Source: Octopus vulgaris (Eukaryota). Taken from it: a DNA stretch of 64,000 nucleotides. The translations under genes were made by a program, and so were the position numbers. The notes beneath the pieces are model-generated. The model made no database searches. It saw only the letters and a list, made by a program, of their open reading frames with translations, and had not been told where the DNA came from. The DNA lies in contig OX597827.1 in assembly GCA_951406725.2 (NCBI GenBank), positions 77,500,001 to 77,564,000 of the forward strand, read 5' to 3'. Positions 27,886 through 61,623 of the stretch are shown here, piece by piece (position 1 is the stretch's first letter; every line of letters starts with the position of its first letter).

Positions 27886-28072
27886 TTGTTCTATATTTAA
27901 GAGATGAGGTATTGTGTACATTATTTACATTTGACGGATATTTGTCCTCATCTTGTTTGTTGTTAACACAACATTTCGGCTGATATACCCTCTAACCTTC
28001 ATTAGGTGTCTTGAGTAAATTTCGAACCTGGGTTCTCATTCCTAAGGTATTTTTCGATGTTGCTGTTGCTGC

Positions 28073-28109
<37 letters not shown>

Positions 28110-28182
28110 CACGTCACTGCCTGGAATCGAACTCGGAATCTTGGCGGTTAGTTGCCCGCTCTCTTAACCACTACGCCATATG

Positions 28183-28230
<48 letters not shown>

Positions 28231-28389
28231 GCATCAACAAAATACCTTAGGAAAAATACCTTAGGAATGAGAACCCAGGTTCGAAATTTCCCCAAGACCT
28301 CTGATTAAGGCTGGAGGGTATATCAGCCGAAACGTTGTGTTAACAACAAACAAGATGAGGACAAATATCCGTCAAATGTAAATAACGTA
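27886..28389. mobile_element. Inverted-arm hammerhead/tRNA element, copy 1 (tRNA-like core on minus strand, 28112-28184)
   Basis: The left arm is the reverse complement of the right arm (AAAATACCTTAGGAATGAGAACCCAGGTTCGAAATTTCCCCAAGAC...CCGAAACGTTGTGTTAACAACAAACAAGATGAGGACAAATATCCGTCAAATGT). The core has A box TGGCGTAGTGG and B box GAGTTCGATTCC on the minus strand. Confidence 0.85.
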
Positions 28390-48124: not shown

Positions 48125-48301
48125 TACAGTTCTATATTTAAGAGATAAGGAATTATTTACATTATTTACATTTGATGGATATTTGTCCTTATCTTGTTTG
48201 TTGTTAACACAACATTTCGGCTGATATACCCTCCAGCCTTCATCAGGTGTCTTGGGGAAATTTCGAACCTGGGTTCTCATTCCTAAGGTATTTTTCAATG
48301 C

Positions 48302-48341
<40 letters not shown>

Positions 48342-48481
48342 TCGATAAAATACCTTAAGAATGAGAACCCAGGTTCGAAATTTCCCCAAGACACCTGATG
48401 AAGGCTGGAGGGTATATCAGCCGAAACGTTGTGTTAACAACAAACAAGATGAGGACAAATGTCCGTCAAATGTAAATAATA
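48125..48481. mobile_element. Inverted-arm hammerhead element, copy 2 (no tRNA core; (AAT)n spacer only)
   Basis: Arms about 48125-48300 and 48338-48480 are reverse complements. TSD-like GATCTGGTCA (48115-48124) and GATTTGGTCA (48482-48491). Confidence 0.85.
48390..48435 (+). ncRNA. Minimal type-I hammerhead ribozyme motif (Penelope-like)
   Basis: Stem I GACAC, core CUGAUGA, A, stem II GGCUG-loop-CAGCC, GAAA, palindromic stem III remnant (A)CGU, cleavage nucleotide U, stem I' GUGUU. All core nucleotides are intact in this arm. Confidence 0.7.
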
Positions 48482-53220: not shown

Positions 53221-53342
53221 GTTGTTTAGCTCTTGGCCAGCACTGACCCAGCAGGCCTATGATGAAAGGTTATTCAACAGATGACCATCCTATCGTGTTT
53301 TCAGATGAGAGGATTCGCCAGGTCACAACAACCTAGAATGTG

Positions 53343-53780
53343 TACATTATTTACATTTCACGGATATTTGTCCTCATCTTGTTTGTTGTTAACACAACAT
53401 TTCGGTTGATATACCCTCCAGCCTTCATCTGGTGTCTTGGGGAAATTTCGAACCTGGGTTCTCATTCCTAAGGTATTTTTCAATGTTATTATTATTATTA
53501 CGGGCATATGGCATAGTGGTTAAGAGCTCAGACTACTAACCCCCAAGATTCCGAGTTTGATTCCAGGTAGTGACCTGAATAATAATAATAATAATAATGA
53601 TAAGATCGAAAAATACCTTAGGAATGAGAACCCAGGTTCGAAATTTCCCCAAGACACCTGATGACGGCTGGAGGGTACATCAGCCGAAACGCTGTGTTAA
53701 CAACAAACAAAATGAGGACAAATATCCGTCAAATGTAAATAATGTAAATAATTACTCATCTCTTAAATATAGAACTGTAT
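53343..53780. mobile_element. Inverted-arm hammerhead/tRNA element, copy 3 (core on + strand)
   Basis: Inverted arms with an exact 13-bp TSD AACCTAGAATGTG at 53330-53342 and 53781-53793. Confidence 0.9.
53503..53575 (+). other. tRNA-like Pol III promoter core of the element (SINE-type head, not a functional tRNA)
   Basis: GGCATATGGCATAGTGGTTAAGAGCTCAGACTACTAACCCCCAAGATTCCGAGTTTGATTCCAGGTAGTGACC has A- and B-box spacing and an anticodon-loop-like CTACTAA, but poor acceptor and T stems. Confidence 0.65.
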
Positions 53781-53929
53781 AACCTAGAATGTGGCTGGAG
53801 GAAAATGTGACTGCTATTTCTTTCATGTGGTAAGACACTGTTAAAACAGACCTATCCAACCCACACCAGCTGATGAAGGAGATGTAAACAGGATGAGGAT
53901 GTCCACGTGTTTTTATCTCCAGTTGTGGA

Positions 53930-54175
53930 AAGTATGTGGCTTAGTGGTTAGGGGTTCAGGCTCATGATTGTGAGGTTGTGAGTTCGATTCCTGGCACTGC
54001 ATTCTATCCTTGAGCAAGATACTTTATTTCTCATTGCCTCAGTCCACTCGGAGAACTACATGGAGGGTACATGTGTCTGTGGAGCGCTCAGCCACTTGCA
54101 CATAGATATTATTAGTAGACTGTTCCATTGATTGGATCAACCAGAACCCTCATTGTCATAACCGGCGGAGCGCCA
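53930..54175 (+). mobile_element. SINE family E
   Basis: GTGGCTTAGTGGTTAGGG...GAGTTCGATTCC...TCCTTGAGCAAGATACTTTATTTC...GTGTCTGTGGAGCGCTCAGCCACTTGCAC. Confidence 0.75.
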
Positions 54176-56469: not shown

Positions 56470-57492
56470 TTCTGGAATCTTCTTGCTCTTATCCTTTCCT
56501 GCAGTTGTTCACATGTAACAGAACCTTAATGGCGTTAAACCCATTGGTCTTAGATGGTCAGTGAAGGTCTGCAGCAGTTTAACAGATGCTTAACAGCATC
56601 ATGCTCACCAGTCTTGAAGGGCCTGCAAGGGTCCTAAGTATTGTCCCTTTCCTCAGACCCAGCAAGTAAAATATGTAATTGTTACTAACATCCCTGGCAT
56701 CTCACTGGTACTTTGTTTTATTGGACCTGGAGGGACGAAGGGTAAATTTGACCACAAAGCTCTTTATCCAGCACTCTACTGATTCTGTTAATCCACCGAT
56801 CCATTTGAACTCACAACATAAGTAGCTGCCATTTATCTGACTCCCTTCCAACTCTGACGGTCAAATAGTGCTAAGGCCACATAAGATGTACCAATGTTGG
56901 TGCCACATAAAATGTACACTCTGTAAACTGTTTGCTTGTTAGGGAGATCATCTGGCTATAGAAACCAGGCCAAAACAGACATGGAGCCCAGGCAGCTCTT
57001 GTCAAACCGTCCAACCCATGCCAGCATGGAAAACGGACATTCAGTGATGATGATGATAAACACACACACACTGTGTGTGAACTTCCATTGTATAAAAATC
57101 AACACAGAATAATTTTTCAGGGTTTCTTGTTTTTAAATATTTTGAATATTGGTACAGGCATGGCTGTGTGGTAAGAAGCTTGCTTACCAACCACAAGGTT
57201 CTGAGTTCAGTCCCACTGAGTGGCACCTCGGGCAAGTGTCTTCTACTGTAGCCTCAGGCTGACCAAAGACTTATGAGTGGATTTGGTAGGCAGAAACTGA
57301 AAGAAGCCTGTCGTATGTACATACATATATATGTGTGTGTCTGTGTTTGTCTCCCCATCATCGCTTGACAATCGATGTTGATGTGTTCATGGCCCCATAA
57401 CTTAGCAGTTTGGCAAAAGACACTGACAGAATAAGTACCAGGCTTACAAGGAATAAATCCTGGGGTCGAGTTCTTTGACTAAAACCCCTCAA

Positions 57493-58162
57493 CCCATTAA
57501 GTCCCACTGTCCTATAAATAGGACACTAAATGAGAACATTAAATAAGCTATGTCACATTGTCTCACTGTCCTATTTATAGGACACCAGGTATTTCCTTTT
57601 CTACTCGAAGTGAAGGAGTTTTAATAATTATTTTTTTCATTTTAACCTATTTTCAATCATCTGTAAAAATTTAAAAGTAATATTCAGAAAATACAGTTCT
57701 ATATTTAAGAGATGAGGAATTATGTGCATTATTTATATTTGATGGATATTTGTCCTCATCTTGTTTGTTGTTAACACAACATTTCAGCTGATATACCTTC
57801 CAGCCTTCATCAGGTATCCTGAGGAAATTTCGAACCTGGGTTTTCATTCCTAAGGTAGTTTTCGATTTTATTATTATTATTATTCAGGTATATGACGTAG
57901 TGGTTAAGAGCGCAGGCTATTAACCCCAAGATTCCGAGTTCAATTCCCGGCAGTGACCTGAATAACAATAATAATAATAACAATATTGAAAAATACCTTA
58001 GGAATGAAAACCCATGTTCGAAATTTCCCCAAGACACCTGATGAAGGCTGGAGGGTATATCAGCCGAAATGTTGTGTTAACAACAAACAAGATGAGGACA
58101 AATATCCGTCAAATGTAAATGATGTAATATTCAGAAATTTAAGTACTCTGGGACTTAATGGG
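57493..58162. mobile_element. piggyBac-type MITE hosting copy 4 of the hammerhead/tRNA element
   Basis: 14-bp TIRs CCCATTAAGTCCCA / TGGGACTTAATGGG with TCAA and TTAA flanks. Internal palindrome TGTCCTAT(A/T)3TAGGACA occurs twice. Confidence 0.75.
57691..58123. mobile_element. Inverted-arm hammerhead/tRNA element, copy 4 (core 57887-57958 on + strand)
   Basis: Inverted arms with a 14-bp TSD GTAATATTCAGAAA at 57677-57690 and 58124-58137. Confidence 0.9.
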
Positions 58163-58410
58163 TTAAGGTGGTGCTCCAGCATGGCCGCAGTCAAATGACT
58201 GGAACAGGTAAAAGAATTGTTTTATTTTTATTTTAAGTTGAATATTTTTCTCTTGAGAATTAATGTTCCATCATTTTGTATAATCTGCAAAAAATTTAAT
58301 TAAAGTTTTGATTATTATAATTATTGCATGTATACCATTCTCTCTCTCACATAACATACTTTATATTAGCATCTTTTAATTTTGTTTTCTTTTTCTCTAT
58401 TTCTTTTCAG

Positions 58411-59336: not shown

Positions 59337-59655
59337 TGGAGGGAGGGACAAAGATGAGTGTTGAAAGATAAAAAAAGAAAAAAATCTCTCAGTTGAAATA
59401 TGTTTTAAGCAAGAGAGAGAGAGAGAGAGAGAGGCAGAGAGCACAGCAAGTCCTTAAGCAAGTCTTTCCACGGGAAATATCGAAATGTCTTCAGCGTTAA
59501 TCTAACCATGTTAAAATTGTGAATATTCCAGAAACAAAGTTCTTTTAACAGCAGCAACAGAAATAACCACAACAGTAGTGATATTATTAATAATAATAAT
59601 AATAACAACAACAATCAACTAAACTGTTTCCCCTCACCTCACCAAATTCTACAGA

Positions 59656-60327
59656 ATGGAGTCATTACAACCTATGTATTCATCTTCTGGGACTGGTTTA
59701 GTTCCGCCTGGAAATAACCCCAATGCAGGGCAAGATACAAGCAGCAGTGGTGGCAGGGGTGGCGCAGGGAACCGTGTCACCAACAGCAGCGGTGGCACTA
59801 ATGTCGGTCGACAGACAACCAGCATGGAACACATGCGAGGCAACGACGTGTTCTACAGGGACAACTTACTGAAGGGGCCACACCCTTCTGCTGGGCACAC
59901 ACACCATGCTCACAGTCACGCCCACAGCCACGCCCACGGTGGACACCATGACCATCACGCCCACAGCCACGCCCGACACACCAACTGCAGTGGCAGTGGG
60001 GGTGGTGCCGGTGCCGGGGGCACTGGCAACCATCAACATCATCATCATCACCACCACCATCACCACGGGCATATCGGAGGGGTTAACCAGAATGCCCTTC
60101 ATTCAGGAGGTGGTGTCGGTGGCACCGGTGGTAAGGGCCTCGGTGTCGGTTTGAACAACACCAACATGAACACAAACGTCAACCCGGGCCTCAACGTGAA
60201 CCTGGGACCGAGTCCCAACACCGCTGCGAACATGCCACCAGCCACGAGCATCGCAGGCAATGTAAACATAGCCCCTCCCCAACAACAGCAACAACAACAA
60301 CAGCAGCAGCAGCAACAACAGCAGCAG

Positions 60328-60362
<35 letters not shown>

Positions 60363-61623
60363 GCAGCAACAACAACAACAGCAACAACAACAGCAGCAAC
60401 AACAACAACAGCAACAGCAGCAACCACAAGCACCACACTCACAGCCGCCTTCGACAAGTTCTTCAGCCACTACAATGAATATGAGTATGCCATCAGGCAT
60501 GATAGTGAACGCCAGCATGGTCGGTATGAACATGAATGCCATCCATACCATGCATACCATGCATGCGGCCATGAACATGATGATGATCAAACGACACCCA
60601 ACGAGTAGTGAGAAAGAGGAGAAGCAACACAAGTGTGATGTTTGCCGCAAGACTTTCACTCGACGATCGGACCTGTTGAATCACCAGCATGCTGCTACGC
60701 TGAACGACGATGGCAAGCACTTCTATTGTTCGTTTTGCCGTAAAGCATTCCCCATCCGTGCTCGACTCAAGGACCATTTACGCACACACACCGGCGAGAA
60801 GCCGTTCCGGTGTGTCTACTGCGAGAAAATGTTTGCGCACCAGACCAACCTGAAGTCACATCTCCGTTTACACACTGGCGAAAAACCTTTCAAGTGCATC
60901 GTATGTAGTAAGGCTTTCTCGCACCAAACCAACCTGAAGAGCCACGAGCGCACGCACACGGGCTGCAAGCCGTACCACTGTGGATACTGTGGTAAAGCGT
61001 TTTCTCATCAGACAAACCTGAAGGACCATCAGCGGATCCATACTGGTATCAAGCCCTATCGATGCAGCTATTGCGACAAGGCCTTCAGCCATCAGACGAA
61101 TCTCAAAGACCACGAGAGGACCCACACCGGCGTGAAGCCCTTTCAGTGTACATACTGTGATAAAGCATTCAGTCACCAGACGAACCTAAAGGACCACCAG
61201 AGGACCCACACGGGCGAGAAGCCTTACAGTTGTTCCTACTGTCAGAATGCGTTCAGCCATCAGACTAACCTGCGAGATCACGAACGAACCCATACGGGCG
61301 TGCGACCGTACCAGTGTCGCTTCTGCACGAAAGCGTTCAGTCACCAAACGAACCTGCGAGATCATGAGAGGACTCATACGGGTGAAAAACCTTACCAGTG
61401 CGCGTACTGCGAGAATGCGTTCAGCCATCAGACCAACCTGAAGTGCCACGAGAGGCTACACACCGGTGAAGCTGCCAAGACGTTCACGTGCACGGTCTGT
61501 AACAAAGGTTTTGCTCACCAGACTAATCTGAAGGTCCATGAACGCACTCACAACAGGGGGCCGGCGGCGGTGGCGGCGGTAGCGGCGCAGGAGCAGAACA
61601 AGGCCCCTCCGCCGAAAGGATGA
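59656..61623 (+). CDS. C2H2 zinc-finger transcription factor, 655 aa; His/Gly-rich and polyQ N-terminus; 10 canonical fingers plus 1 atypical finger
   Basis: Uninterrupted ORF with an in-frame upstream stop at 59620. C-X2-C-X3-F-X5-L-X2-H-X3-H motifs are joined by TGEKP/TGxKP linkers. GC-rich coding-type composition contrasts with the flanks. Confidence 0.95.
60280..60423 (+). repeat. Coding CAA/CAG tract encoding 48 glutamines
   Basis: 144 nt of mixed CAA/CAG codons between PP and PQAP. Confidence 0.95.

Follow-up and report, generated by a model that had tools for sequence, protein, structure and literature searches.

A repeat at positions 53343-53779 of the window, by which we mean the whole 64,000-nucleotide stretch of Octopus vulgaris DNA analysed here, places a tRNA-like sequence between two inverted arms that carry hammerhead ribozyme motifs. 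The locus raises the question of whether this is a mobile unit of its own kind or the product of another element. From sequence comparison we consider it probable (about 0.6) that these repeats are head-to-head pairs of 5'-truncated 3' ends of a Penelope/Poseidon-type element, in which a tRNA-derived head with A and B boxes opens the pLTR and is the likely start of RNA synthesis by Pol III.

Four paired insertions in the window

The window contains four paired insertions, at 27888-28389, 48125-48480, 53343-53779 and 57692-58127. The inverted arms, trinucleotide spacers and tRNA-like heads in three copies described in the initial annotation were all present, with the 48125 copy having (AAT)n only. 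The eight arms were 91-97% identical to the arm at 48345 used as query, and every copy paired one long arm (172-176 nt) with one short arm (140-144 nt). The head faces the long arm in the 27888 and 53343 copies and the short arm in the 57692 copy, and the layout is therefore not fixed. Target-site duplications (TSDs) flank three of the four copies and read as originally annotated; the 27888 copy sits within (TA)n, so that its TSD is not callable.

The focal copy lies between a 13-bp left TSD (53330-53342, plus strand) and a right TSD at 53781-53793 (plus strand). Its short arm (53343-53485, minus strand) repeats the pLTR end in inverted orientation as a tailless second copy, 5'-truncated in (AAT)n, and contains a minimal hammerhead with one core letter changed (53391-53437, minus strand). 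The (AAT)n spacer of this inverted copy (53486-53499, minus strand) has the head-to-head junction at its right edge. The remaining parts are on the plus strand, beginning with the tRNA-like head, a likely Pol III promoter (53500-53578), which has tRNA position 1 at 53502, the A box at 53509-53519 and the B box, with one change from the family consensus, at 53555-53564. A second (AAT)n spacer (53579-53604) leads into the long arm, the pLTR end (53605-53779), which includes an ATG at 53624 and the first 52 ORF codons. Within the long arm is a minimal type-I hammerhead (53651-53698) with CUGAUGA at 53658-53664, GAAA at 53686-53689, a U16.1 to C change and a predicted cut after 53693, followed by the optional Penelope 'tail' of about 30 nt that occurs on one side only (53747-53779).

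In the sister insertion at 27888-28389 the minus strand carries the head (28110-28184) together with the long arm, the plus strand carries the short arm, and the flanks are (TA)n. Both halves of the 48125-48480 insertion are truncated in (AAT)n, leaving it headless and with no strand assigned; it has a 10-bp TSD with one mismatch and an intact hammerhead in its right arm. In the 57692-58127 insertion (plus strand) the head (57887-57961) is part of the short-arm half and the TSD is 14 bp. ARAGORN detected no tRNA in the window, and Rfam, applied to the window and two short stretches, called neither a hammerhead nor a tRNA, so that the proposed check against the Rfam hammerhead models gave no hit. 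The ORF body of the element described below is absent from the 64-kb window.

Several other features of the window were recorded. At four insertions in 64 kb, their density here is roughly 8 times that estimated for the genome on average. Positions 8600-35200 are taken up by very long microsatellite fields (GGT/GAT/AGT), and other SINE-like repeats are present, with a second tRNA-type head at 53925-54050 adjoining the focal copy. The 57692 copy splits another SINE-like repeat (57400-57500 with 58150-58220), and a C2H2 zinc-finger gene at 59623-61623 on the minus strand has an open frame of 666 aa with tracts of poly-Q and poly-H.

The arm is the start of an RT/GIY-YIG reading frame

The partner element was found via the sequence directly upstream of the head, which is common to some copies and encodes a conserved GIY-YIG C-terminus with the RT further up. 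The full unit consists of an 835-aa RT/GIY-YIG ORF, 29 nt, the tRNA-like head, (AAT)n and the arm. A 30-copy consensus, only 2-6 copies deep in its 5' part, contained a single 835-aa frame with its ATG within the arm and its end 29 nt before the head. The arm itself is thus the start of the ORF, as well as carrying the minimal hammerhead. This bears out the Penelope-like origin that had been proposed and supplies the autonomous element sharing the arm as its pLTR that had been sought. The head had been assigned to a non-autonomous unit alone, which does not hold, as the autonomous element has it too, 29 nt past the stop codon of its ORF.

Locus L229 is a partial tandem of head-arm-ORF-head-arm with a 2.5-kb period, and in L221 and L223 the arm is continuous into the ORF. 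Together with L292 these loci show a pLTR overlapping the ORF start and partial tandems, as in EN+ PLEs. Pfam scored RVT_1 above cut-off in 2 of 5 copy fragments; PF01541 (GIY-YIG) did not match the C-terminal fragment, and the GIY-YIG domain was assigned by motif only. From the domain order and the unlikeness to Neptune-like families we infer that this is an EN+ PLE of the Penelope/Poseidon type.

A natural relative, intact at 847 aa, opens with the same peptide translated from the hammerhead (13/20 identical). The 30 loci retrieved with this relative as query all belong to the one family described here, and many have the inverted layout. Relatives at 57-70% protein identity (P0002-P0016, P0040-P0047) were present in ENA records, one cluster having barnacle members, which suggests horizontal transfer among marine animals.

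The GIY-YIG families returned by the Pfam search, which are young and Neptune-like, were rejected as the partner as they had no match to the arm. One young two-ORF Neptune-like PLE (L121:744-4006 and many other loci) has many intact 781-aa frames and a hammerhead-like end with UUGAUAA instead of CUGAUGA. When the arm peptide was compared with proteins, the sole match among seven candidates was an Octopus sinensis gene model of 368 aa (P0001), whose first ~36 residues are the start of the element's ORF. The remainder is presumably a host protein resembling TNF-receptor, and the fusion is either an exonised element start or a prediction artefact.

The tRNA-like head and the 5' ends of copies

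The A and B boxes, scored against the A/B-box consensus, were conserved across 74 heads. The head aligned end to end with this genome's tRNA-Asn, the only isotype compared, with a score of 57 against 43 for the best of 2,000 shuffles. Folding of one copy showed that the cloverleaf is lost. A cluster of about 24 tRNA-Asn-like genes was noted elsewhere in the genome (G000:C20:52.85-52.93 Mb).

The 5' ends of 137 halves from 86 arm-selected loci fell in the arm (28), the spacer (44), the head (25), at -8 to +3 of the head start (29), at -9 to -35 (5) and in the ORF (6); four of the five ends at -9 to -35 read as fold-back junctions. Of the halves that reached the head start, 29/40 stopped at -8 to +3. 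Tested against the stop rate inside the head, which predicts 10%, the pile-up was 30/41 (p 3e-22). Exact 22-mer counts across the genome followed the same course, with 8,420 at the arm start, 3,735 at the head start and 890 just upstream. In several copies the first base is a G that precedes the A box by 13 bases and tRNA position 1 by six, and 13/30 ends keep at least two bases of the leader that lies upstream of this position. The G start and the retained leader are more readily explained by Pol III initiation than by RNase P cleavage. Conserved boxes and 5' ends that pile up at the head agree with the tRNA head as the likely promoter, as was first proposed, and the short copies are very probably of Pol III origin.

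Two copies head to head form one insertion

The 2.8-Gb genome (227 contigs) was searched for further copies. In 60 loci fetched by arm or head, the order head, (AAT)n, arm never varied, and the usual insertion was two head-to-head copies, each 5'-truncated at its own point. These insertions had zero, one or two heads in either orientation, and single halves were also found. The initial annotation had proposed a separate hybrid with the core between two arms; the unit is instead head-(AAT)n-arm, and what looked like its other arm comes from another copy, variably truncated, that often has a head of its own. Long, ORF-bearing copies have the same inverted layout.

Its proposal that the repeat inserts as a single piece was upheld. 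TSDs of at least 10 bp, called with up to 1-2 mismatches tolerated, bounded 36/49 paired insertions drawn from 90 loci and 3/150 mismatched-flank controls, which is beyond chance. TSD length was variable, with 10-13 bp common. The 3' ends of copies were bimodal, at arm 140-149 and 172-176, and 85/101 pairs combined one long and one short end, as compared to 50% expected if the two were independent (p 4e-13).

Copies are ~94% identical to the consensus and decay neutrally. The arm-start 22-mer with 8,420 exact genome matches was present in 36/113 sampled arms, and scaling by this fraction gives about 26,000 such arms. A second estimate, with a wide error, is about 20,000 insertions, based on two that were present in 270 kb of DNA picked arbitrarily. 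Private variants common to both arms occurred at 18 of 7,060 sites (~7 expected; 0/500 shuffles), a modest excess that does not separate one template from one source or conversion.

The (AAT)n spacer is often expanded or invaded by other repeats (L017, L021, L023, L025, L028, L043), leaving arms up to 2 kb apart. Internally deleted derivatives, with ORF nt 275 joined to the arm start or ORF nt 388 joined to the head start, were each found in several loci (L266, L272, L273, L278, L279 and L286, five of them on C29; L270 and L275), and are secondary non-autonomous masters.

The hammerhead does not set the ends of copies

The consensus and fold of the arm motif have the core letters, stems I and II, a palindromic stem III and an extra base after A9; on this basis the motif is classed as a minimal type-I hammerhead. 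A hammerhead, intact or mutated, had been claimed for each arm. The motif stands, and the catalytic core letters are intact in only 4/8 window arms; among these eight, the core and the ACGU palindrome are both kept only at 48340-48480. In the larger sample the core was intact in 162/293 arms. The predicted ACGU duplex is weak (-5.7 kcal/mol).

The ribozyme had been expected to define the RNA ends. Internal 5' ends at the predicted cut numbered 7/135 in a 5-nt bin, in line with other bins, and copy 3' ends lie 50-85 nt downstream of the cut, indicating that the ribozyme does not set the copy ends. The hammerhead would be a motif inherited from the pLTR. The lack of an excess at the cut fits Anolis PAc, in which hammerhead cleavage was not needed (PMC11167929).

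Further families with hammerheads or hammerhead-like motifs, sharing the core with different stems, were noted at L253 (near 398, in flipped orientation), L132:3161 and L139:8667-9406; L139 has tandem and inverted motifs reading UUGAAAA.

Transcription of the ORF and a model for insertion

Whether Pol III also reads the whole ORF is a separate question, to which we give a little less than even odds. The head takes up nearly all the non-coding space before the ATG. L287, which is TSD-bounded, begins at the head and ends at ORF nt 332, and L264 begins at the head and reaches ORF nt 497, with no clear TSD. None of the copies seen spanned from the head start to the ORF end, and 2/35 loci at the ORF 5' end had a clean start at the head. 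L229, L292 and L263 have ORF 3' sequence upstream of the 5' arm.

The coding strand of the 2,508-nt ORF contains no TTTT, the Pol III terminator, against 2.9-5.2 expected from four shuffles (P 0.001-0.035), in a post hoc test of one family. GGGG is likewise missing (P 0.045-0.30). Two Neptune-like ORFs of equal T content have 8 TTTT each, and all 12 of the other long ORFs sampled as a control contain TTTT, at 0.8-5.9 per kb. The 81 copy segments, 110 kb in all, contained 44 scattered runs (0.40 per kb); L235, which is the copy with the least damage, has 3, and a check on 79 shared variants was without power. A metagenome scan yielded 2 loci, one of them a distant relative (47%) with 6 TTTT runs and no recognised head. 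RNA reads, which covered the arm plus head and the mid-ORF only, were about equal in both directions, with no place listed that had many molecule ends, and were given no weight either way. As reverse transcription appears to start internally, a defined RNA 3' end would not be needed. The need to translate an uncapped Pol III RNA counts against reading of the whole ORF.

In the model that we favor, Pol III would initiate at the G that lies some six bases ahead of the tRNA-like +1. Where the head sits at a copy's 3' end, the product would be a short SINE-like RNA (head-AAT-arm-flank); where it sits in a tandem's upstream repeat, the RNA would extend through the TTTT-free ORF. The element protein would cut both target strands ~12 nt apart, and would prime two cDNAs, each at its own internal position on the RNA (arm 140-149 or 172-176, a spacing of ~30 nt). 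The cDNA 3' ends would then join head to head, using either microhomology or the near-palindromic 5' end of the RNA, where the annealing of two cDNA ends is predicted at -11.8 kcal/mol as DNA; head-to-head junctions occur with either central dinucleotide. Anolis PAc cuts and extends both strands in vitro, with RT starts at two internal sites flanking the tail (PMC11167929), which supports the two-primer insertion model. A rival joining step is self-priming on an antisense template (PMC3846280). In its fullest form the model would describe a protein-coding autonomous retrotransposon transcribed end to end by Pol III from a tRNA-derived pLTR promoter, with terminators purged from its 2.5-kb ORF. 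It would spawn its own Penelope-mobilised SINE from every 3' repeat, and its near-palindromic RNA 5' end would anneal two cDNAs from both sides of one cut to close the insertion. This combination may be correct, at marginally worse than an even chance.

Alternative explanations

The element and its insertion route could be as proposed with Pol III confined to the short SINE-like RNAs, the ORF mRNA being made by Pol II from a promoter in the ORF 3' end or by host read-through, and the absence of TTTT being chance. The Penelope promoters that have been studied are LINE-like internal or TATA/Inr-type (PMC2377424, PMC3846280), ORF 3' sequence does precede the 5' arm in three loci, and the TTTT P values are only modest. 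However, the head leaves almost no other non-coding space before the ATG, L287 and L264 begin at the head and continue into the ORF, and every control ORF contained TTTT, and we regard this explanation as unlikely. The 5' pile-up might alternatively reflect an RT stop at a small hairpin or RNA processing at the tRNA-like fold, the A/B boxes being a passive SINE relic. The near-palindrome at the head start can make a 4-5-bp hairpin, and the pile-up is known from copy ends. That hairpin is short, though, the cloverleaf is lost, the boxes are conserved and 13/30 ends retain at least two bases that RNase P would remove, making this origin of the pile-up improbable.

A fixed non-autonomous unit, with a core between two arms whose ribozymes excise RNA on both strands, was the initial interpretation. 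Three window copies look like this and TSDs bound the whole unit, but the variable number and orientation of heads, the copies with ORF, the single halves and the lack of excess ends at the cut site make it very hard to sustain. The long inverted ends could also be read as the terminal inverted repeats of a DNA transposon, of the foldback or MITE type, an idea that has practically no chance of being right given the unequal ends, the variable TSD length and 5' truncation, and the continuity with an RT/GIY-YIG ORF. Assignment to the MITE/foldback class was accordingly rejected, as it implies equal terminal inverted repeats and a fixed-length TSD. The non-LTR retrozyme class was rejected as well, its head-to-tail monomers bounded by the cut being different from the head-to-head pairs found here. 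An independent tRNA-SINE would share the A/B boxes and the sharp 5' end, and was rejected on the grounds that the head sits in the partner's own pLTR.

Relation to known elements

The initial annotation knew of no description of this architecture, yet published work already reports opposed hammerheads as well as inverted pLTRs in which the tail is one-sided (PMC4209133, PMC3846280, PMC8557442). The inverted copy at the 5' end, the tail of 30-40 nt on one side, TSDs and a pLTR that takes in the first codons have been described (PMC3846280, PMC8557442), as have minimal hammerheads with an extra base after A9, and opposed pairs 100-700 bp apart (PMC4209133). Like the Penelope/Poseidon PLEs Anolis PAc (PMC11167929), Adineta Pen2a (PMC3846280) and D. 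virilis Penelope (PMC2377424), the octopus element has a single RT-then-GIY-YIG ORF of ~840 aa starting inside the pLTR, a hammerhead at the ORF start, partial tandems, an inverted 5' copy, a one-sided 30-40-nt tail and a TSD. Unlike those elements, whose promoters are LINE-like internal (DPE) or TATA/Inr, its pLTR opens with a tRNA-type A/B-box head where 5' ends pile up, and its coding strand is without TTTT. The motif is no different from the minimal PLE hammerheads of Cervera and de la Pena 2014 (PMC4209133), sharing the short stem I, the unpaired base between 9 and 10.1, G10.1-C11.1 and the palindromic stem III, with U as the octopus cleavage base; opposed pairs were noted there in S. mansoni.

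Schistosoma Sm-alpha/Sj-alpha SINE-like repeats also combine a Pol III promoter and a hammerhead in one retroposon (PMC6765202). They are non-coding tandem repeats cut by the ribozyme, whereas the octopus head is in a coding element found as inverted pairs whose ends are not set by the cut. The tRNA head, sharp 5' end, partner-derived 3' end and TSDs are shared with tRNA-derived SINEs (SINE2) and SIDEs (PMC6740152); the octopus element differs from them in that the partner is a PLE rather than a LINE, the head belongs to the partner itself, and the 3' ends are internal RT starts with no poly-A or repeat tail. Animal non-LTR retrozymes (bioRxiv 10.64898/2026.07.22.740005, PMC7761336) are likewise short non-coding hammerhead elements tied to PLE pLTRs, and in contrast to the octopus pairs are head-to-tail tandems released by the ribozyme. 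The text of the retrozyme preprint (bioRxiv 10.64898/2026.07.22.740005) contained no mention of a tRNA or promoter.

In full-text literature searches we met neither a PLE with a tRNA-type promoter nor a tRNA SINE that has Penelope as its partner, and no coding retrotransposon transcribed by Pol III. The family is not described in the main text of a 2026 octopus repeat paper (PMC13282606), whose repeat library may hold it under some label. The mirror layout and the ribozyme are ordinary for PLEs, and the tRNA-type A/B-box head inside the pLTR is the part absent from the literature searched.

If the model is true, it would blur the line between SINEs, which are Pol III-transcribed and non-coding, and autonomous coding retroelements. 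Nature would then offer an example of Pol III RNA being translated into a protein of 835 aa, and of a route by which the promoter of a partner element gives rise to a SINE-like family. The short paired copies, which number in the thousands, document statistically how Penelope integrates, and the pairing of one tailed with one tailless end in 85/101 insertions is a constraint testable in the PAc in vitro system. For the octopus itself, each insertion is possibly a fold-back of at least 140 bp in host transcripts, and thus a candidate dsRNA substrate for RNA editing.
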